This document shows, in pieces, positions 3,903 to 29,363 of a stretch of 64,000 bases of DNA. The stretch covers positions 59,583-123,582 of the IMG/VR virus record IMGVR_UViG_3300025362_000004. One strand, written 5' to 3'. Below the pieces are notes generated by a model that saw only the letters and a list, made by a program, of their open reading frames with translations, searched no databases and was not told the DNA's origin. Position 1 is the stretch's first letter, and each line of letters begins with the position of its first letter. Both the position numbers and the translations under genes were made by a program. This DNA is from a virus.

Positions 3903-3991
3903 GTTGTCTGTGGTGGAATGGTAAACACGCTAGGTTGTGGCCCTAGTGCCGATAATTCGGTTTGCGAGTTCAAATCTCGTCAGTCAACCCA
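3903..3991 (+). tRNA. tRNA-His(GTG) with long variable arm
   Basis: G-1:C73, GTG loop, extra arm GCCGATAATTCGGT. Confidence 0.85.
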
Positions 3992-3992
3992 T

Positions 3993-4070
3993 TCGAGTGT
4001 AGCTTATGTTTGGAAAAGCACCCACCTTATAAGTGGGAGAGCGTGGGTTCAAACCCCACCACTCGGACCA
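3993..4070 (+). tRNA. tRNA-Ile(TAT)
   Basis: CCCAC-CTTATAA-GTGGG anticodon arm. Confidence 0.85.
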
Positions 4071-4074
4071 ATTT

Positions 4075-4148
4075 GGGGATATAGTATAATGGGATTACGG
4101 GTGGTTTGCAACCACTTAATCGGGGTTCAACTCCCCGTATCTCCACCA
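4075..4148 (+). tRNA. tRNA-Ala(TGC)
   Basis: G3:U70, TGC loop. Confidence 0.9.
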
Positions 4149-4156
4149 AATGAAAT

Positions 4157-4231
4157 GGATTAGTAGCTCAGTGGTAGAGCAAGCGGCTGTTAACCGCTAG
4201 GTCGTAGGTTCAAGTCCTACTTAGTCCGCCA
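4157..4231 (+). tRNA. tRNA-Asn(GTT)
   Basis: Cloverleaf. Confidence 0.9.
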
Positions 4232-4232
4232 T

Positions 4233-4309
4233 GCCGATTTAGTGTTAATGGCTTAACATAAATGCCTTGTAAGCATAAGATATGGGTTCAACTCCTGTAA
4301 TCGGCACCA
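4233..4309 (+). tRNA. tRNA-Thr(TGT)
   Basis: Cloverleaf. Confidence 0.85.
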
Positions 4310-5579: not shown

Positions 5580-6269
5580 ATGCGAATTATATCAAACAAA
5601 AGAGACTATTACGATGGTTGGGCGACATATGATAAAACATATAAAACTAAAGTATGGGTTCGGAGACCACAAGAAATTGAATATAGCAAATATAAATTAG
5701 AAACTTTTACAGAAAATAGAGTTTGGATTAATAGTAGAGCTTTTCATATTGGTTATCTAATTATCGCTGGTATAGTTTATCCATATATCGAATACGAAAG
5801 TCTATGTGATGAAATTTGGTATAAAGGTAAGTGGATAAAAGAAAATAACAAAGAAGATAAATTCTTCTATGACTATGAAACTCTTATGAGTGAACATGGA
5901 GATTTCCTAAAAAAACATTGTTGGAATGATGCTAGAGATATTAAGAATTTCTTTGAACAAGACCAATTCGATATGACAGAAATGTGTTTAGAATTAGATG
6001 CACCAATCATTTTAATTGAATTTAAAAAGTTTCCTTGGAGACTTGCAGACACAACAAAAAGAGTTATTACAATAAATCCTAATCTAAAAGAAATTAGTTT
6101 AAGTAAGGTATTTAGTTCACCACAAATGTATCAAATATTAGACAGATTTGTTAGTAATGTTATGGTAGGAGATAAAACTCCAACATCAAAACAAACAGAT
6201 ATTGAAAAAGTTGAAGCACATGGCTTTGACAAGAAAATTTCCTTTAGAAAGGGGAAACAAAAAAAATGA
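5580..6269 (+). CDS. hypothetical phage protein
   Basis: GAGGAG RBS, 229 aa ORF. Confidence 0.8.
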   Translation: MRIISNKRDYYDGWATYDKTYKTKVWVRRPQEIEYSKYKLETFTENRVWINSRAFHIGYLIIAGIVYPYIEYESLCDEIWYKGKWIKENNKEDKFFYDYETLMSEHGDFLKKHCWNDARDIKNFFEQDQFDMTEMCLELDAPIILIEFKKFPWRLADTTKRVITINPNLKEISLSKVFSSPQMYQILDRFVSNVMVGDKTPTSKQTDIEKVEAHGFDKKISFRKGKQKK

Positions 6270-7302: not shown

Positions 7303-8061
7303 ATGTCAATAGGTATTTATAAATACGAAAATAAAATCAATGGAAATATTTATATTGGTCAGTCAATTAATATAGAAGGAAGGCACAGTAAGCATTTATA
7401 TCGAGCTATTAGAGGCAAAGAAACAAACAGTGAATATAATACAAGTTTATCTAAAGCGATTAGAAAATATAATATAGAAAATTTTGATTTTTCAATAATT
7501 GATGAATGTAAAATTGAAGAATTAGATAAAAGAGAGATTTACTGGATTAAATATTATGATAGCTATAATAATGGTTATAATCAAACACTTGGTGGTCAAA
7601 GTGGTAATAATTATAAGTTTGACAAAGAAGTTATTATTAAAGTGAAAGAACTGTTAAAAAATACAACATTGTTATATGATACAATAAATGAATTAACTGG
7701 TGTTTCTAAAACTACTATATCAGAAATTAATACTGGAAAATATCATATTGATGAAGGTCAAGAATATCCTCTTAGGGTAACGACTAAAGAAGAAAATTAT
7801 TGCTCTAAATGCGGAAAACCAATAAGTAAAAGAAATGAAAATAATTTATGTAGGATTTGTTATAGTGAAACTACTAGAAGAGTAGAACGACCTACACCAA
7901 TAGACCTCGCTAAAATGGTTGTTGAAAAAGGTTTTAGTAGCGTTGGTAGGAATTATGGAGTGTCTCATACCAGTATAAAGAGATGGTGTAAAACATATAA
8001 AATTCCGTATATAAAGAAAGAATTAAAAGTATGGTATCAAAATCAAATAGGCTCTGAGTAG
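7303..8061 (+). CDS. free-standing GIY-YIG homing endonuclease
   Basis: GIYKY...IYIGQS, E..WI, GYN motif; C-terminal Zn-finger/HTH. Confidence 0.9.
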   Translation: MSIGIYKYENKINGNIYIGQSINIEGRHSKHLYRAIRGKETNSEYNTSLSKAIRKYNIENFDFSIIDECKIEELDKREIYWIKYYDSYNNGYNQTLGGQSGNNYKFDKEVIIKVKELLKNTTLLYDTINELTGVSKTTISEINTGKYHIDEGQEYPLRVTTKEENYCSKCGKPISKRNENNLCRICYSETTRRVERPTPIDLAKMVVEKGFSSVGRNYGVSHTSIKRWCKTYKIPYIKKELKVWYQNQIGSE

Positions 8062-8085
8062 GGCCAATCGCCGCAAGGCGTAAAT

Positions 8086-8165
8086 GCCAGTGTAGCTCAA
8101 TTAGGTAGAGCGGCCGCCCGATTAGCGGTGACACAGTAAGAGTTCGATTCTCTTCTCTGGTACCA
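8086..8165 (+). tRNA. tRNA-Ile(GAT)
   Basis: Cloverleaf. Confidence 0.8.
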
Positions 8166-8168
8166 AAT

Positions 8169-8248
8169 GCCATTAAATTAGGTCTGGGAAAACTATTGTC
8201 CTCTAAGGGTAATAGAAGTGGAAGGTTCGAATCCTTCCGTTGGCACCA
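8169..8248 (+). tRNA. atypical or degenerate tRNA, apparent CTA anticodon
   Basis: Good T-arm and ACCA; TTGTC-CTCTAAG-GGTAA arm; weak D and acceptor stems. Confidence 0.5.
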
Positions 8249-14746: not shown

Positions 14747-14796
14747 AGAGCCTATACTTACTTCAAATACATTCAGCGTAGATTAGTTAGGCCTCT
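14747..14796 (+). ncRNA. Y-RNA-like (YrlA-type) small RNA, copy 1
   Basis: Bulged closing stem plus CTTACTTC motif shared with the copies at 16791-17156. Confidence 0.65.
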
Positions 14797-14817
14797 AAAA
14801 AAAAGGAGATGTTTTAA

Positions 14818-16782
14818 ATGAAAGAAAAGATTTTAATAAGACGTAATTATTTTTTAGGTAATACAAGTTATGAAGATAGCAATTACCGTAGATATTACGC
14901 AGCACAATTACTAAACAAGTTTGGTATCCTAGTTGATAGACCAAGCATGGTAACACGTAGACACGTGGAATTGACTAGTGAATTGTTTGGAGTTAATATT
15001 CCAAAGAGTTTTTATAGTAATCCACAAGATATGAGATATTTCACTTGTAGTGAATTACTTGTTGAACAAGTAATTTCATATTTTAACATTGAGTTTGTTA
15101 CAGGCGTAAGTTCTGACGATGAAAGTTCTTTTGATAGAATAGAAATCTTTAGAAAAGCCCTACCAAATTATAGAGAAGGCGATGAAGTTGTTTTTAGAAA
15201 CTTTAGAATCCTTACTGATAATGAAGCAAGTCCAATATTAGAAGAAGTTTATAGTAACTTAGCAAGTTATACAAGAAAATGGAATGAAACTGAAAATGAA
15301 GAATTTGTTTGGTTATTCAATAACCATGTCGCGAATGACACAAGAATAAAAAGCAAGGACAATGCTATTGCAATGTTCAACGCTTATCCATGCCGTTTAT
15401 TTGGTCATTCATTAGACCAAAAAGATGTTGTAAAATTAAGCGTTGAAATGATTGGTAGAGAAGAAAAACACTTTTCTTATACTCCTGAACAAAAGCAAAA
15501 ACTTGGCTATGCTTTAGAATCTTGCTATAGTGTTCCATTGACAAATAAACAAGCAAAATACTTTAATACTATTTCTAGAAAATTAGGATATAAAAGCAAT
15601 GAAACAAACGACCGTAGTCCATATAAAATGGCAACAGAGTATATGAATAAGGGTAGAGTTGTTGATGCTGCAAGAATTTTTGCAAGAAATGGTTCTTTGC
15701 TTGAAAGAAACTTAATATGGTTACTTTCAAGAGCTGATATGCAAGAAGCACAAGAAATCATGAAGTTCGTTAAAATCAAGAATCCAATTGTTGGTATTCA
15801 ATTCTTCAATGGCTTAATTGCTCAAGGAGAAAACAATGGGAGTAGAACCTTCAAATTCTACAAAAATAGATTGATTAGACAACACATTGAAACAGACGTA
15901 GAAGCAAGATACAGAAAATCTGTTCTATCTTTAGGTATGAAAAAATACTTAAAGAAAGTAATGAATGAAAAAATTGATGAATATTACAAGAATTTACCAA
16001 GTCTTGGAAAAGTATATGTTGATGATGAATTTGAAAATATTGGTTTACCAATGAATACAAGTGCATCTGGAACAGGAATTGATGTATTACCAGTAGGTAG
16101 TAGATTAATGATTACTGAAGATTACATCAGAACATTCTGTTATTGGAACGGACCAAGAGATATTGATACAAGTGTAATTTTCATACATAGAGATGGTCAT
16201 CAAGCTACATTCTATTGGGGAAATTATTACGCAAAACCATTTGGACGTAGCGCACTATATTCTGGCGATGACAGAAGTAAAAACGGTGCAGAATATGGAG
16301 ACTTTAAAATTAGTGAACTTAAAGCATTAGGTTATACACACGCTATTTATACACTAAATGGTTATAGTGATAATCTTGACGTTGGGGAAATTTATTGTGG
16401 TTATCAAAATAAAAAAGACCTACACACACAAGCTTGGGATGCTAAGAATATTCAAATGAAAATTAAAGTTCATGGAGATAGTAGAAGTTATGCTGGATTC
16501 GCTATTGATTTTGAGACAAGAGAAATCATTGTTTTAAATCAAATGGTAGACAGTAAAAATCGTGTCGTTAATCCCGAAACATTAAAATCATTTGAACCAT
16601 ATTTAAAATCTAATTTCTTAGATACATTTAATGTTGCTAGAATCGCAAGATTAAGAGGAGAAGTTGTAACAGACCCATCTAAAGCAGATTATGTATTTAG
16701 TAGAGATTATTTTGAAAATATAAAAGGTCAAAAAGTTATCAGACCATCTGATATCGAAAAGATTGTTAAGTTATTAAATTAA
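14818..16782 (+). CDS. alpha-helical Ro/TROVE-like domain fused to C-terminal TerD-like domain
   Basis: C-terminal W....DIDTSV.F...YSGDDRS..GAEYGDF resembles TerD; helical N-terminus; flanked by Y-like RNAs. Confidence 0.6.
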   Translation: MKEKILIRRNYFLGNTSYEDSNYRRYYAAQLLNKFGILVDRPSMVTRRHVELTSELFGVNIPKSFYSNPQDMRYFTCSELLVEQVISYFNIEFVTGVSSDDESSFDRIEIFRKALPNYREGDEVVFRNFRILTDNEASPILEEVYSNLASYTRKWNETENEEFVWLFNNHVANDTRIKSKDNAIAMFNAYPCRLFGHSLDQKDVVKLSVEMIGREEKHFSYTPEQKQKLGYALESCYSVPLTNKQAKYFNTISRKLGYKSNETNDRSPYKMATEYMNKGRVVDAARIFARNGSLLERNLIWLLSRADMQEAQEIMKFVKIKNPIVGIQFFNGLIAQGENNGSRTFKFYKNRLIRQHIETDVEARYRKSVLSLGMKKYLKKVMNEKIDEYYKNLPSLGKVYVDDEFENIGLPMNTSASGTGIDVLPVGSRLMITEDYIRTFCYWNGPRDIDTSVIFIHRDGHQATFYWGNYYAKPFGRSALYSGDDRSKNGAEYGDFKISELKALGYTHAIYTLNGYSDNLDVGEIYCGYQNKKDLHTQAWDAKNIQMKIKVHGDSRSYAGFAIDFETREIIVLNQMVDSKNRVVNPETLKSFEPYLKSNFLDTFNVARIARLRGEVVTDPSKADYVFSRDYFENIKGQKVIRPSDIEKIVKLLN

Positions 16783-16790
16783 AATTATAT

Positions 16791-17156
16791 AGAGCCGATG
16801 CTTACTTCAAATTTCACAGGCCTTTAAAGCCTGTACCATACAATTCTAGCTCGGCCTTATAGTAAAAATAATAAAATAGAACCAATGCTTACTTCAAATT
16901 TAATCTAATCCGCTGATGAGGTTCGAATCCTCCTAGTCGTCTAATGGTAAGACCGCGGACTCTAAAAGACAGCTTGGTCATAATTAAAAAATAAATAGAA
17001 CCGAAACTTACTTCAAATGGATATTACAGGTTCGATTCCTGTATTAGGTCCCGAAAGGGTTGCCTGATATATAAAATAGTTCGGTCAAAAATAAAAATAA
17101 ATAAATTAGAGCCTAAGCTTACTTCTAAAACAATTCGATGTTAATTAGCTAGGCCA
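16791..17156 (+). ncRNA. array of four Y-RNA-like small RNAs (copies 2-5)
   Basis: Copies at 16791-16857, 16878-16980, 16997-17087, 17108-17156; covarying bulged stem, CTTACTTC, tRNA-arm inserts. Confidence 0.7.
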
Positions 17157-18005: not shown

Positions 18006-18397
18006 GGGGCTGTTTATGGATTCGACAGGGTAAAAACGGATACGATTAGCATAGGTTCGATGGAACTAAAACACACGATAAAACAATCGGAAACTTATTT
18101 AACACAGTTATTTCTTGGGTAAAGGGTTTATTCTCTCCAAGAGTAGCACTTTCAGTCTAAGAAGAGACAGAACGAATTTATAACTATTACCTATAAGTTA
18201 TAATTTCGCCAGAATATAGGATACGACTACTGACTAATACAAAGTGGTAAGAGATAAATTGTATTGAACGATTCGTAATAAAGTTTGTATGTAGTAAAAA
18301 GCGAAAAGTTCTAAAACCCTCTAAAAACATACTAACTATGTAGAATATGGTATCACGAATATCGTGGACAGGGGTTCAAATCCCCTCAGCTCCACCA
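18006..18397 (+). ncRNA. ssrA: tmRNA
   Basis: GGGGCTG..GGATTCGAC 5' end, GGTTCAAATCCCCTCAGCTCCACCA 3' end, G3:U70, tag ORF 18089-18160. Confidence 0.95.
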
Positions 18398-21219: not shown

Positions 21220-21702
21220 ATGAAACGAAAAGTAATATTTTTAGATGTAGACGGAGTATTGAATAGCGAAAAATTTTTTATAGCAAGAAAACCAGGCTTA
21301 AATAAAGATAGCAATTATCCTTATAGCCACTTAGATAATGATGCAGTTGGAAGATTTGCATATTTTGTTGCAGAACTTAAAAATAATTTTGAAGTTAAAA
21401 TAGTTATTTCTTCGTCTTGGAGAGTAATGAATTATGATGAAATCAGACAAGTTCTTGCTAAAAACTTTATTGCGAGATATGATGAATTTACAAGAACAGA
21501 GTATAGTGATGGAGATAGAGGACAAGAAATTTTAAACTATTGTGCTTTTTATGGTATTGATGTATCTGAAATAATTGTTATTGATGATGATGATTTCGAT
21601 ATTAAAGATTATATCCCCGCAGAGAACTTCATTCATACCTCTTGGAAAAACGGATTAACCTACAAATTAGTTTCAGATTTCCTAAATAAATTAGCAGTGT
21701 AG
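21220..21702 (+). CDS. HAD-family phosphatase (Swiss-army-knife RNA-repair type)
   Basis: FLDVDGVLN, ISSSWR, RG.EI, IDDD. Confidence 0.85.
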   Translation: MKRKVIFLDVDGVLNSEKFFIARKPGLNKDSNYPYSHLDNDAVGRFAYFVAELKNNFEVKIVISSSWRVMNYDEIRQVLAKNFIARYDEFTRTEYSDGDRGQEILNYCAFYGIDVSEIIVIDDDDFDIKDYIPAENFIHTSWKNGLTYKLVSDFLNKLAV

Positions 21703-21799
21703 ATTTGATTTTCTTTATGGTTTATGATATAATTATATTATAACTAAGTGAGATATATAATATTATTTAGTTATCGGTCTTTGAAAAACAAATGAGAAA

Positions 21800-23580
21800 T
21801 TATCACTCATTTCATATGAAATTAATGGTGGCCTCAAAGCTGTTCGCGGCTTAAAGGTGGGTATCAACACGAACTCCAAAGGTTCGTTCGTAGTCCAAAA
21901 GACAAGGGGATATCGCTGTTATCATTAGTTGTTGTAAATTAATACCATCGGTGGTCATTTAGTAAAGTGAGAGTAGCGTCTCAAACTATACTATGGGAAA
22001 ATGATTTTACTGCTGTTGACGGGGAGAAATGCCTCTATAACACGGGTGGTAGTTGAACGTAGAAACCAGTAGAATTTTTAAATAATTAAGCAAATGCTAA
22101 ATTTGTAGGTAATCAATCCTACCTATTACACGCCTTGTGCAATATAGAGACCTTGCTAGTCAATATATGTAATAGTCGCATAATGAATAAGTTGTATATG
22201 TATTGGACTTCCTAATCAGAAGACCCTAACGTAAGTTAGTACACTAAAACCCTAACTCTTGCTTGGAGTAAGTGGCGTATAAATGAGGTTGAAATACCTT
22301 TCGAGCCTGTTGAGGCAAATTTATACGGCGAAACATATATAATTTAATTAGTGCATCGAGAAGCGACTCAGTATCTGGGGCCCGCGACCCTCCCAGGGCG
22401 TGGATGAGACCCAAGCGTAGATATGAAAACCGTTGAAACGGGTAAAACCGTGTATAATGAGTCAAGCCAATTCGAGTAAAAGCATAAAAACGGAAAAAAA
22501 TACAGATACTTTCTTAAAGTGAAAGTTGACTTGTTTAAGACAGGTAAAATAGATTAAAGCCTACGTACTTGTGAGTAATCAATCTCACTATCCTTCGGGA
22601 TATGTAATGAACCAACACAGTTAATGAATAAACTTATTGGTAAGATAATAAATCCAATCCGTTAATTTTATATGAAATGAGTGAATAACACGAGGCAGTT
22701 TAGTGTCTCTAAAGGGAAAAGGTGGGTAACCATCTGGAAGGTATTTGACAAATATCGCTATGTAATATAGCCCGTCTAAACAAAAGTAGTCAAGTGAGAG
22801 TATTAAAAATGTAGCTCACTCTTCAAGATAGTAACGAATTGTTGGAGAATAGATACTGTTATTATGTTAAAAGGAGTCAACGGCAAGTGCTTAGATTCTG
22901 TGGTTATCTCGTGGTGGGATAATCGGCATATCCAAAAATAATAGAATTGAAAGAAAACTACAAGGGTAATAAGTATGAGGTTAGCAACTAAATGCAGTTA
23001 CCCATTAAGTAAAGTAAAAATGGAGCTTTATTTAAAGTGAAAGTACCGCGAGGAAATCACAACGGAGATATTGAATATTTTGTGTCCCAAAAGGAAACGA
23101 AGTTCAGGTTGAAGTATATCTTCTGTCAAAACAAACAATACATATGGGGGTTCGAGTCCCTCCCTAGCCTCCAATAAAAATTATATGGCTGGGTAGCTTA
23201 ATGGGTAAAGCAGTTGTCTAAGAAACAATACATTTGTATAAGCGAAATCTTCAAAGATTTAAGATGAAAATGCCTTAATTCCACAGAGTAATACTTAATG
23301 TGGAGCAGTAAAACTCGCAAGGTAATACTGTTTGATAAGGAAATGCACGGCGTCTCTAGCGAGACTTAGTGAGTCGCAAGCTCACACGGTAATGGAATTG
23401 TCGATTAATCTTAAATGACAGGGTGCTAAGCATCATCCTTCCAGAGATGGTAAAACAAAGCAGGCATGCTTCTAAACAGACCCGAGTCTGTGGATAAGTT
23501 AATTAACACGTGCAGATAAGCATCGCGTGGTACGATTAACTAAAGTAGGAGTATTAAAGATATAATCTCAGTCTTTAAAA
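21800..23580 (+). ncRNA. giant (about 1.8 kb) structured RNA locus, GOLLD-like 3' part
   Basis: Promoter at 21705, terminator at 23589, no credible ORF, 26-bp long-range helix 21803-21828/22659-22684, embedded permuted tRNA. Confidence 0.7.
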
Positions 23581-23588
23581 ACTAAACT

Positions 23589-23612
23589 AGCACTTCCGAG
23601 TGCTCTTTTTTT
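23589..23612 (+). terminator. intrinsic terminator
   Basis: AGCACT-TCCG-AGTGCT plus T run. Confidence 0.85.
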
Positions 23613-23716
23613 ATGGAATAAAAGTAAATACATAAATTAAAAATTGACTTTTGGTTTAAATTATGTTATAATTAAGTATAAAAAGATAGATATATATTTA
23701 ATATTAGGAGAGTAAA

Positions 23717-24121
23717 ATGAATAGTACTGAAGCACACATAAAATATAACGATTTAATAACTAAATTAAAATTAACTTTACCTTATGGAAATTTTAATGAT
23801 TTAAGCATTTCAGATTACTTTAAAAATCGCAAGACTGGACCAAAGCGTTGGTTATATAATCGTCATCACATCTGTGAAATAGATATAAGCGGTTCAAGAA
23901 TTATGCAATCAGGATATGCTAACTCAGAATCAATAATTGTAGATACAGATACTCATTGTGTATTACACTACTTAATTATTTTAAGTGGCAGGACTAGACC
24001 AGATTGGGGTATGCGATTACAATTCGATAACATACATGAATGGGAAGAATCAATAAGAAGAGGTTGCAGAAAATATAATATACCATTTGATTATGAATGG
24101 CAAAAAAGTATAAGGAGTTAA
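23717..24121 (+). CDS. hypothetical protein, possibly HNH-like
   Basis: RHHI.E...H...H pattern. Confidence 0.6.
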   Translation: MNSTEAHIKYNDLITKLKLTLPYGNFNDLSISDYFKNRKTGPKRWLYNRHHICEIDISGSRIMQSGYANSESIIVDTDTHCVLHYLIILSGRTRPDWGMRLQFDNIHEWEESIRRGCRKYNIPFDYEWQKSIRS

Positions 24122-27345: not shown

Positions 27346-27436
27346 TATAGATTGTGCGACTTTTGAATAAAAAGTCGCATTTTTTATTATTGACTTTTTT
27401 CCAATTTTGTGATATAATAAATTATAAAGATGTAAA

Positions 27437-27500
27437 GGTAAAGTTATTGGGAAATAACTACACAAAATTAAGAGCCTAGAACAGGTAGTCTGATTGCCAC
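27437..27500 (+). promoter_or_regulatory. c-di-GMP-I (GEMM-I) riboswitch
   Basis: GGTAAA-stem-GNRA-stem-ACACAAAA...GCCTA..AGGTAG...TTGCC, between a promoter and an ORF. Confidence 0.75.
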
Positions 27501-27531
27501 TTTAAATCAAAAAACTTAAAGGTGGTTTAAA

Positions 27532-29285: not shown

Positions 29286-29363
29286 GGGAGTATAGTGTCA
29301 ACTGGACAGCACGTCGGCCTTCAAACCCGTACAGCCCCAGTTCAATTCTGGGTACTCCTGCCA
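29286..29363 (+). tRNA. tRNA-Trp(TCA), opal-reading
   Basis: CTTCAAA loop, G73, class I fold, mismatched anticodon stem. Confidence 0.8.

Follow-up and report, generated by a model that had tools for sequence, protein, structure and literature searches.

Few structured bacterial RNAs are as large as GOLLD and ROOL, both of which form cages made of RNA only and have no known function. GOLLD was solved as a 14-mer cage by cryogenic electron microscopy (cryo-EM; Kretsch et al., PMC12286853). Excerpts of that study describe many GOLLD members as longer than 800 nucleotides (nt), their 5′ regions as variable, and their linker as disordered, facing the cage interior and sometimes holding a transfer RNA (tRNA) (PMC12286853). 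A tRNA-Phe is placed in J13/15 of a Mycolicibacterium GOLLD in excerpts of a further report (PMC12990946), while for ROOL we draw on excerpts of its description by Weinberg et al., 2017 (PMC5737381). The locus considered here lies in a 64-kb window (the whole stretch of DNA analysed), which comprises bases 59583-123582 of the 123.6-kb IMG/VR virus record IMGVR_UViG_3300025362_000004, a record rated complete by CheckV. In a gene-free interval of this window (21703-23716, with the flanking genes ending at 21702 and starting at 23717), a GOLLD, here RNA 2, is directly preceded by a structured RNA of 0.88 kb, here RNA 1. We put the probability at roughly 0.6 that the interval is a unit styled like a ribosomal RNA (rRNA) operon, encoding two different large structured RNAs in tandem.

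That RNA 1 and GOLLD represent two RNA families in tandem is itself very probable. A sequence-only reading of this DNA had proposed an unusually large noncoding RNA, or two fused ones; the second half of that proposal fits, while the idea of a single double-sized GOLLD does not. What is new here is the tandem, a single boxA-like leader that precedes the GOLLD 3′ end by 1.8 kb, and a permuted tRNA in the GOLLD linker. The features on which the argument draws are as follows.

21705..21733, plus strand: predicted sigma-70-type promoter, TTGATT-17-TATAAT with an extended -10 TG (10 of 12 positions)
21776..21787, plus strand: boxA-like leader GGTCTTTGAAAA, one mismatch from GTTCTTTGAAAA
21803..22684, plus strand: RNA 1, closed by a terminal helix (seven-sequence alignment A3, covariation, fold)
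21803..21828, plus strand: 5′ arm of the closing helix, 26 nt
21935..22187, plus strand: unit A, a weak local match to the ROOL core (model positions 185-523), 31.7 bits
22105-22122, plus strand: hairpin GTAGG-TAATCAAT-CCTAC, in unit A
22346..22635, plus strand: unit B, which matches that ROOL core a second time and less well (model positions 182-526), at 19.7 bits and a per-genome E of 0.005
22571-22588, plus strand: hairpin GTGAG-TAATCAAT-CTCAC, in unit B
22659..22684, plus strand: 3′ arm of the closing helix, abutting the GOLLD 5′ domain with no terminator or T run between
22685..23062, plus strand: RNA 2 part 1, the variable GOLLD 5′ domain, free of open reading frames (ORFs) and continuous with the Rfam match
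23063..23574, plus strand: RNA 2 part 2, the conserved GOLLD domain (RF02032): first hairpin with CAAAAG loop, linker, and 3′ domain with pseudoknot
23133..23233, plus strand: circularly permuted tRNA, between copies of an 11-nt direct repeat AAACAATACAT (23133, 23223)
23240, 23314 and 23563, plus strand: 3′ motifs AAGCGAAATC, CTCGCAAG and TAATCTCAG, respectively (sequence check)
23589..23612, plus strand: predicted intrinsic terminator, a 6-bp GC-containing hairpin (23589-23604) and a T run, the sole plus-strand terminator in 21400-23900

RNA 1 and the GOLLD beside it

RNA 1 is delimited by a closing helix whose 26-nt arms are 92% complementary and lie 830 nt apart. This helix had been picked out from the letters as a 26-bp duplex (21803-21828 / 22659-22684) closing a structured 5′ domain of 0.88 kb; it is present and covaries in relatives, and the domain is a real structured RNA domain closed by a long helix, the region 21800-22690 folding at −242.7 kcal/mol against −199.4 ± 7.8 in 20 shuffles (z −5.6). 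The duplicated TAATCAAT hairpins at 22105 and 22571, and the CCAAAAG hairpins, found at 21895 and 23087, are likewise where that reading had put them. Where it went astray was in taking the 0.88-kb domain for an extension of GOLLD, because the domain belongs to a separate family that stands alone in six other contigs, none of which then continues into GOLLD.

All six of these relatives (L138, L147, L151, L154, L155 and L156) lie in phage tRNA islands, L147 and L151 being metagenome contigs, L154 and L155 coming from IMG/VR, and L156 being a 116-kb contig filed under a Bacilli metagenome-assembled genome. A two-hairpin pattern led to L138, and motifs common with L138 led to the other five. The double-hairpin pattern returned 10 loci, of which L138 alone was real, five lying in long ORFs and four, without the hairpins, being dropped; among 8 metagenome loci found with a 19-mer anchor, L146, L149, L150, L152 and L153 were chance matches in unrelated sequence, and L148 was dropped as the same contig as L138. 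Counting the window copy, the seven members all lie in or beside tRNA genes, measure 0.86-1.1 kb, and align over their full length from the 5′ arm to the 3′ arm of the closing helix, while their longest ORFs, of 43-100 amino acids (aa), fall in differing places and on differing strands. In L147 (5683-6115, minus strand), an internal duplication of about 95 nt in the 5′ part, a repeat of the ...CTACATGTGGTGTTGC... segment, brings the RNA to 1.1 kb.

The alignment of these seven sequences, four of which are close kin, gives an RNAalifold consensus of 127 pairs (n = 7). Standard pairs fill 90.1% of the cells, compared with 71.9 ± 1.0% when partners are shuffled among sequences and 38.6-42.5% when partners are displaced by 1-3 columns, and 78 of the 127 pairs are changed on both sides, compared with 44.5 ± 3.9 in shuffles (0 of 500 reaching 78) and 18-28 after sliding, counts that are inflated because the consensus structure was derived from the same alignment. 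The corresponding figure in a six-sequence alignment is 63 of 123 pairs. Between 4 and 6 pairs of the closing helix covary in the six- and seven-sequence alignments, and in L154 that helix consists of 24 bp of unrelated letters, the helix being kept and the sequence not.

Additional variation comes from an RNA library. Two Logan contigs from one run of a DNase-treated metatranscriptome, both derived from a relative, cover 22213-22463 and 22919-23074, and none falls on the flanking genes. The first, which lies within RNA 1, differs by 24 letters and 4 gaps (about 89% alike); among the 20 changes listed by place, 6 make up three compensated pairs (A-U to G-C, A-U to C-G, C-G to U-A), 4 keep the pair after a one-sided change, and 5 are unpaired. 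The second, within GOLLD, has 4 changes, 3 of which keep predicted pairs and 1 of which is unpaired. The DNA runs X5, X10 and X14 yielded identical pieces and short unrelated overlaps, with no natural variation among them.

These data also bear on the possibility that the 0.88-kb domain is not an RNA but a non-autonomous mobile element, or another feature acting at the level of DNA, with 26-bp terminal inverted repeats. Such an element would be in keeping with 26-nt inverted repeats that flank 830 ORF-free nt. However, the arms of the relatives differ wholly in sequence yet remain complementary, 78 internal pairs covary, and pieces carrying compensatory changes occur in the RNA library; moreover, every member of the family shares its strand with the tRNA genes next to it and lies behind a promoter, and a search of the window with filters off found one copy only of the family 5′ module. 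We give this explanation next to no chance.

The search model used there, R1, is a covariance model of the family 5′ module, which scores 142.7 bits at 21826-21988 (the window sequence being in its training set) and recovers L147, held out from training, at 143.6 bits. No Rfam 15 model reaches E 0.05 on the relatives; blastn of the window stretch and of the L138 and L154 RNAs against 50,697 GenBank phage records returned nothing; no paper on the family was found in the literature; and among the 151 genomes of the class of G065, the module occurs in G065 alone. Judged by sequence and alignment, RNA 1 belongs to a rare phage RNA family absent from Rfam. In the interval, the longest ORF (73 aa, minus strand, 22244-22465) has no Pfam match and the next measure 48, 46 and 40 aa, bearing out the earlier statement that no credible ORF is present.

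Immediately downstream, the Rfam model of GOLLD, RF02032, matches 23063-23574 over all of its positions (1-416), with an E of 4e-40 and a score of 150.4 bits where the gathering score is 150, and the pseudoknot helices are kept in the alignment. The model is limited to the first hairpin, the linker and the 3′ domain, which is conserved. The hallmark motifs of the family are found as a CAAAAG loop at 23087, CUCGCAAG at 23314 and UAAUCUCAG at 23563, so that the likeness to GOLLD suggested by the 3′ motifs now has a model match above the gathering score, with the motifs in place. The region 22685-23612 folds at −237.3 kcal/mol, against −204.2 ± 6.6 in 20 shuffles (z −5.0). Measured from the end of the closing helix of RNA 1, the GOLLD is an ORF-free 890 nt (22685-23574), a normal length, and therefore the upstream 0.88 kb is not needed to complete it. 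The estimate of roughly twice the typical GOLLD size is accordingly not supported, the GOLLD itself being about 0.89 kb and many members exceeding 800 nt in the excerpts cited (PMC12286853). Like other GOLLD RNAs, it has a variable 5′ domain, an internal linker, and a phage setting beside a tRNA island. Unlike them, it is among the most divergent members by score (150.4 bits), has no boxA-like leader of its own but is preceded without a break by the 0.88-kb RNA, and carries a linker tRNA that is circularly permuted. On sequence grounds, RNA 2 is a divergent GOLLD of ordinary size.

Whether such a tandem recurs was addressed with GOLLD-motif loci drawn from IMG/VR by an exact-match pattern, which number at least 120 (L016-L135); all counts over these loci given here are among the matches listed. 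The set holds a few loci that are not GOLLD, since at least L127 matches by chance within coding sequence and GOLLD is missing from 2 of the 50 records searched for it, and the totals of 92, 106 and 120 loci used below include them. Searching the 120 loci (about 1.07 Mb) with R1 gave no match at E <= 0.1 in any of them. Conversely, no GOLLD was found at E <= 0.05 in the loci of the six relatives of RNA 1 (for L138, in the whole record). The span free of ORFs and tRNAs before the GOLLD 3′ end is 1869 nt in the window, compared with a median of 1162 nt (quartiles 929-1252) in 80 other loci, and the sole longer span is the chance coding match.

A tandem of this kind could arise if RNA 1 had been captured as an extra GOLLD 5′ domain, with the two parts staying linked and folding or assembling together as one functional chain of 1.8 kb; the cage would then, for example, be decorated with or filled by 14 copies of RNA 1. 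Between the parts there is indeed neither a terminator nor a good promoter, and boxA does not occur a second time; variation of the 5′ region is a described property of GOLLD in the excerpted text (PMC12286853). RNA 1 and the GOLLD 5′ domain also have two short repeats in common, which keep their order from one to the other (AAAGGTGGGTA at 21853 and 22718, TAGTMAAGTGAGAGTA at 21960 and 22787). However, R1 run on the GOLLD 5′ domain with filters off finds no match at E <= 10, so these repeats do not amount to significant homology, and the model does not support a relationship of the GOLLD 5′ domain to the 5′ part of RNA 1. Furthermore, RNA 1 has a self-contained fold with its own terminal helix and occurs alone in six relatives, and the 26-bp duplex would resemble a processing stalk more than a hinge. 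We therefore consider one functional chain unlikely. Two separate observations concern the same stretch: AAGTGARAGTA occurs three times in the window (21965, 22792 and 23035) and is nearly repeated by GTGAAAGT at about 22520, and candidate pairings of 10-11 nt between RNA 1 and GOLLD were set aside as being, by estimate, at about the level expected by chance in 2 kb.

RNA 1 also had to be compared with ROOL (Rfam RF03087; 574 model positions; gathering score 99.1). Unit A reaches an E-value of 4e-4 in a 2-kb scan and 5.9e-6 per genome. By these model searches, RNA 1 is nevertheless not a member of ROOL, the scores of 31.7 and 19.7 bits for units A and B comparing with a gathering score of 99.1 and the relatives having no matches. 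No ROOL was found at E <= 10 in the RNA regions of L138 (7280-8200) and L156 (4940-5880) or in the whole records of L138, L154 and L155, nor at E <= 0.05 in the loci of five relatives. Running the GOLLD and ROOL models on each half, as had been proposed, was thus positive for GOLLD on the 3′ half and negative for ROOL on the 5′ half, where it stays below the cut-off. Like ROOL, RNA 1 has a phage setting beside tRNA genes, and shows a stem-GUAAUCAAUCC-stem hairpin and a UUGA-hairpin-UAUAA junction in the same order, features that occur twice in the RNA 1 family, about 460 nt apart. Unlike ROOL, only model positions 182-526 of 574 are matched in the window, twice in tandem, and RNA 1 is 0.86-1.1 kb long rather than 581 nt. 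The common features may reflect distant kinship or motif reuse; the resemblance is weak and is seen in the window copy only. No ROOL was found at E <= 0.01 in any of the 49 records behind GOLLD-motif loci that were searched, 47 of them with GOLLD, nor in 10 of 10 and 3 of 3 further records. A further pattern, TATAACAC-gap-GTAATCAATCC, was abandoned: its 12 loci held no ROOL at the gathering score, and their blastn matches to the window spanned 26-33 nt with a best E of 0.015.

The boxA-like leader and a probable single transcription unit

In bacterial rRNA operons, Nus factors are recruited by boxA, which keeps long untranslated transcripts from being terminated too early, and the 16S-23S spacer is the site of a boxA. 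The leader of the window, GGTCTTTGAAAA, is the sole match to GTTCTTTGAAAA at up to one mismatch in the 64-kb window and ends 16 nt before the closing helix, and no other match within two mismatches is present in 21700-23620. The exact GTTCTTTGAAAA stands at the 5′ end of the RNA in L138, L147, L154 and L155. At GOLLD-motif loci with at least 1300 nt upstream, which number 92, it occurs (up to one mismatch) on the GOLLD strand in 57, compared with 1 of 92 for its reverse complement, and in 52 of its 62 occurrences the distance to the GOLLD 3′ end downstream is 800-1000 nt, with a median position of −893. In the window, the element lies at −1795; thus, most GOLLD RNAs seem to begin with the element, while here it is placed 0.9 kb further up. 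GOLLD RNAs in general may therefore be boxA-led, of which the excerpted literature makes no mention that we found.

We take the GTTCTTTGAAAA-type 12-mer to be a boxA, a name whose one support here is its place in rRNA operons. Across 13 Bacilli genomes, there are 27 copies of the exact 12-mer and 12 of the reversed control. At 3 of 3 16S genes found in 2 of 4 Bacilli genomes searched, the exact 12-mer falls in the 16S-23S spacer, on the 16S strand and at distances of 89, 89 and 132 nt from the 16S 3′ end, a comparison in which the host of the window phage may differ from the Bacilli and the window copy of the 12-mer has one mismatch. Literature searches for the 11-mer TTCTTTGAAAA together with boxA, or for its RNA form, gave nothing useful. 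By analogy with rRNA operons, the 12-mer would be recognised by host Nus factors, which would explain how an untranslated RNA of 1.8 kb escapes Rho.

The other transcription signals are compatible with a single unit. The promoter at 21705-21733 was assigned because of its position and because the same hexamers stand at the equivalent place in two relatives, TTGATT-17-TATAAT also preceding the RNA in L154 (6012-6040) and L155 (7062-7034). A scan of the region found no plus-strand terminator between 21734 and 23589, and the next strong promoter after the terminator lies at 23644-23672. The statement that the stretch has one promoter and one terminator therefore agrees with the scans, which give a good promoter at 21705-21733 and a terminator hairpin at 23589-23604. 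The junction at 22685 is bridged by an identical DNA contig of 607 nt from another run, spanning 22488-23094, and the tandem is therefore not an accident of assembly. The presence of a single boxA-like element ahead of both RNAs suggests that both depend on one start. From these DNA-level signals we infer a single transcript for both RNAs, and RNA 1 and GOLLD probably form one transcription unit.

Two independent genes that merely abut, with the GOLLD start inside or just after RNA 1 and with RNA 1 ending without a canonical terminator, would be the alternative. The relatives are informative here. An intrinsic terminator lies just past the 3′ arm in L138, L151 and L147; compared with L138, the window copy has one mismatch in the leader 12-mer, has no terminator, and runs straight into GOLLD, so that a gene standing alone with its own 3′ end is not what is found in the window, where no terminator follows 22684. 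On the other hand, no rule-based terminator follows the RNA in L154, L155 and L156 either, and in L155 a fresh promoter comes right after the family RNA and would drive a downstream noncoding stretch. The corresponding candidate in the window is a promoter-like TTGACT-18-TAGATT (9 of 12 positions) at 22526-22555, but this site lies inside the conserved unit B and is no better than expected by chance (8 such sites found against 11.6 expected from shuffles). In addition, no T run follows 22684, and this GOLLD has no boxA-like element of its own, although 57 of the 92 loci have one about 0.9 kb upstream. Two independent genes are, in our estimate, quite unlikely.

The rRNA-operon-styled unit that we prefer would work as follows. 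Transcription would start at the promoter at 21705-21733 and run from about 21740, and the polymerase, on passing the boxA-like element at 21776-21787, would become boxA-modified and continue to the terminator at 23589-23612. RNA 1 would fold and close with its 26-bp stalk, which RNase III would cut as it does in rRNA precursors, separating RNA 1 from GOLLD. GOLLD would then assemble into a cage of many copies, with the linker turned inward and a capped tRNA-like module inside. In bacterial rRNA operons, stalks cut by RNase III enclose 16S and 23S. Like such operons, the interval has a promoter, a boxA-like 12-mer, a long RNA enclosed in an end-to-end helix, a second long RNA and a terminator; unlike them, its products are not rRNAs, and both Nus binding and RNase III cleavage are predictions. 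We propose processing of the stalk tentatively, at less than even odds.

Several observations weigh against this scheme. Its two biochemical steps, RNase III processing and Nus binding, are analogies. The margin of the GOLLD match above its cut-off is just 0.4 bits, whereas 46 of 48 other GOLLD matches in 50 other IMG/VR records score 181-326 bits, and the assembly of the cage may therefore differ here. The pair counts in RNA 1 lean to the predicted structure, large as the gap to both controls is, and in the RNA-library contig, 5 of the 20 changes listed by place disrupt pairs of the fold predicted from a single sequence. Taken as a class, promoter-like sites do not exceed the chance level in this AT-rich interval (the 8 against 11.6 already given), and one of them, the weak site at 22526-22555, lies inside RNA 1. 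Finally, none of the RNA-library pieces spans position 22685, where the two RNAs join, and the library, whose contigs show neither ends nor strand, may include DNA.

A circularly permuted tRNA in the GOLLD linker

The linker of the window GOLLD holds the two halves of a tRNA in inverted order. The module begins with the variable region, the T arm (GGGGG-TTCGAGT-CCCTC), the acceptor 3′ strand CCTAGCC and T-CCA, and continues after a 13-nt AT spacer with the acceptor 5′ strand GGCTGGG, the D arm and the whole anticodon arm (AAG). In its native order, 23133-23233 is not called as a tRNA by ARAGORN, and the Rfam tRNA model gives a partial match at 23194-23260, of 24 bits against a cut-off of 29. 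When 23187-23229 is joined in silico to 23140-23173, ARAGORN calls a 77-nt tRNA-Leu(aag), to which no tRNA encoded by the phage itself comes close (the best global score being 21 of 77). The best small Rfam match is to the tRNA-like YrlA (RF02553), at 23145-23211, with an E of 0.0023 and 28 bits against a cut-off of 69.

Like the linker tRNAs of other GOLLD RNAs, the module stands 330-430 nt before the 3′ end, and ARAGORN calls ordinary tRNAs at this place in 5 of 106 loci. Unlike those, its 3′ half precedes its 5′ half and its CCA acceptor end is closed by a loop, and a permuted module (T stem 5 of 5, acceptor 7 of 7) is present in 1 of the 106 loci, that of the window. The order of the halves recalls the red alga Cyanidioschyzon, which reportedly has permuted tRNA genes with the 3′ half before the 5′ half. 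There is a likeness also to the tRNA-like domain of YrlA, whose model matches the T arm, the capped acceptor stem and the D arm. Unlike both, the module is broken in the variable loop with an 11-nt duplication, and it lies inside a giant RNA. The word "permuted" is absent from the text of the cryo-EM study, whose supplementary alignments, outside the scope of that search, may hold cases (PMC12286853). No phage literature on permuted tRNAs was found by title, and the literature on GOLLD linker tRNAs or phage RNA nanocages yielded nothing beyond the three sources excerpted here (PMC12286853; PMC12990946; PMC5737381).

With its CCA end capped, and with the chain passing in and out by way of the variable region, this tRNA cannot be released by RNase P and 3′ trimming. 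As far as its predicted layout indicates, the module would either be a tethered mimic of a tRNA, or would need cutting at the two repeats followed by ligation. No match to RtcB (PF01139) or to RNA_ligase (PF09414, Rnl2-type) was found in the phage genome, which lowers the odds of the second option; the T4 Rnl1 family (PF09511) also had no match in the phage genome, but control genomes gave no match either, so that this answer is empty. A linker tRNA that is permuted and capped argues that linker tRNAs need not be releasable and may be tethered tRNA-shaped ligands, which bears on the ideas of "cargo inside the cage" and "inhibited storage" in the cryo-EM literature.

Surroundings and meaning of the tandem

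Upstream of the two RNAs, ARAGORN finds 39 tRNA genes and a transfer-messenger RNA (tmRNA) between 3734 and 20032. Genes nearby encode two metallophosphoesterases, an HD protein, two GIY-YIG endonucleases, an RNase H-like protein, and a HAD domain of the "Swiss Army Knife" type associated with RNA repair. The gene for the last of these adjoins the RNA 1 family in 5 of its 7 members, upstream in the window and downstream in L138, L147, L151 and L156.

21220..21702, plus strand: flanking HAD gene of the window (PF18143, HAD_SAK_2; Pfam E 3e-20), outside the RNA
L138, 6683-7300: HAD_SAK_2 gene
L147, 4369-4923: HAD_SAK_2 gene
L151, 2890-3441: HAD_SAK_2 gene
L156, 5936-6505: HAD_SAK_2 gene

This adjacency suggests a link with RNA 1 beyond shared synteny. 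The flanking proteins have no relatives among the IMG/VR loci; in a set of 5.8 billion proteins, the nearest relative of the HAD protein is 36% identical, and a downstream protein of 134 aa matches itself alone. Near-identical DNA occurs in several runs labelled as salt lake metagenome.

Elsewhere in the window, Rfam models place the tmRNA at 18006-18397 (94.2 bits), a c-di-GMP-I riboswitch at 27427-27501 (49.1 bits against 35) and, at 29286-29360, a tRNA missing from the ARAGORN list, while no RNase P RNA reaches the gathering score across the whole window. An ORF of 654 aa at 14818-16782 (region 14747-17156) has no Pfam match at E <= 0.001. Among the relatives of RNA 1, L154 (6930-7335, plus strand) and L155 (about 5720-6140, minus strand) carry a further ORF-free stretch of about 400 nt after the family RNA, that of L155 with its own TTGATT-17-TATAAT promoter (6172-6144). 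These stretches, which have no Rfam match at E <= 0.05, are possibly another structured RNA. The same two contigs have partial matches to OLE RNA (L154 at 4004-4282, plus strand, 108.1 bits; L155 at 7913-8216, minus strand, 106.9 bits; gathering score 50), which span model positions 282-595 of 616, lie in phage tRNA islands and, in L154, overlap a tRNA call at 3979-4051; they are possibly a truncated or tRNA-fused OLE-like RNA in phage.

The position of RNA 1 directly upstream of GOLLD means that both may be made together and act in the same process. The tRNAs, the tmRNA, the HAD protein of RNA-repair type and the phosphoesterases point to the phage's handling of tRNAs or its takeover of translation, in which we infer a role for the two RNAs. 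A bolder version, which we regard as improbable, would make the locus a miniature "rRNA operon" for cage RNAs, in which one boxA-led precursor is cut at the 26-bp stalk into two self-assembling giant RNAs and the cage tethers up to 14 permuted tRNAs that cannot be released. If this were true, the permuted module would be a decoy or dock for tRNA-directed host nucleases or for tRNA enzymes; alternatively, it would mature through a circular intermediate by means of a host ligase and be the first permuted tRNA gene outside eukaryotes and archaea. In either case, GOLLD would carry cargo shaped like a tRNA, and giant phage RNAs would in general make use of boxA-dependent antitermination.

The RNA 1 family would add to GOLLD and ROOL a third family of similar size and setting, found here directly upstream of a GOLLD. 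The presence of the 12-mer both before this family and at 57 of the 92 GOLLD-motif loci points to host Nus-factor antitermination as the means by which phages make these long untranslated RNAs.

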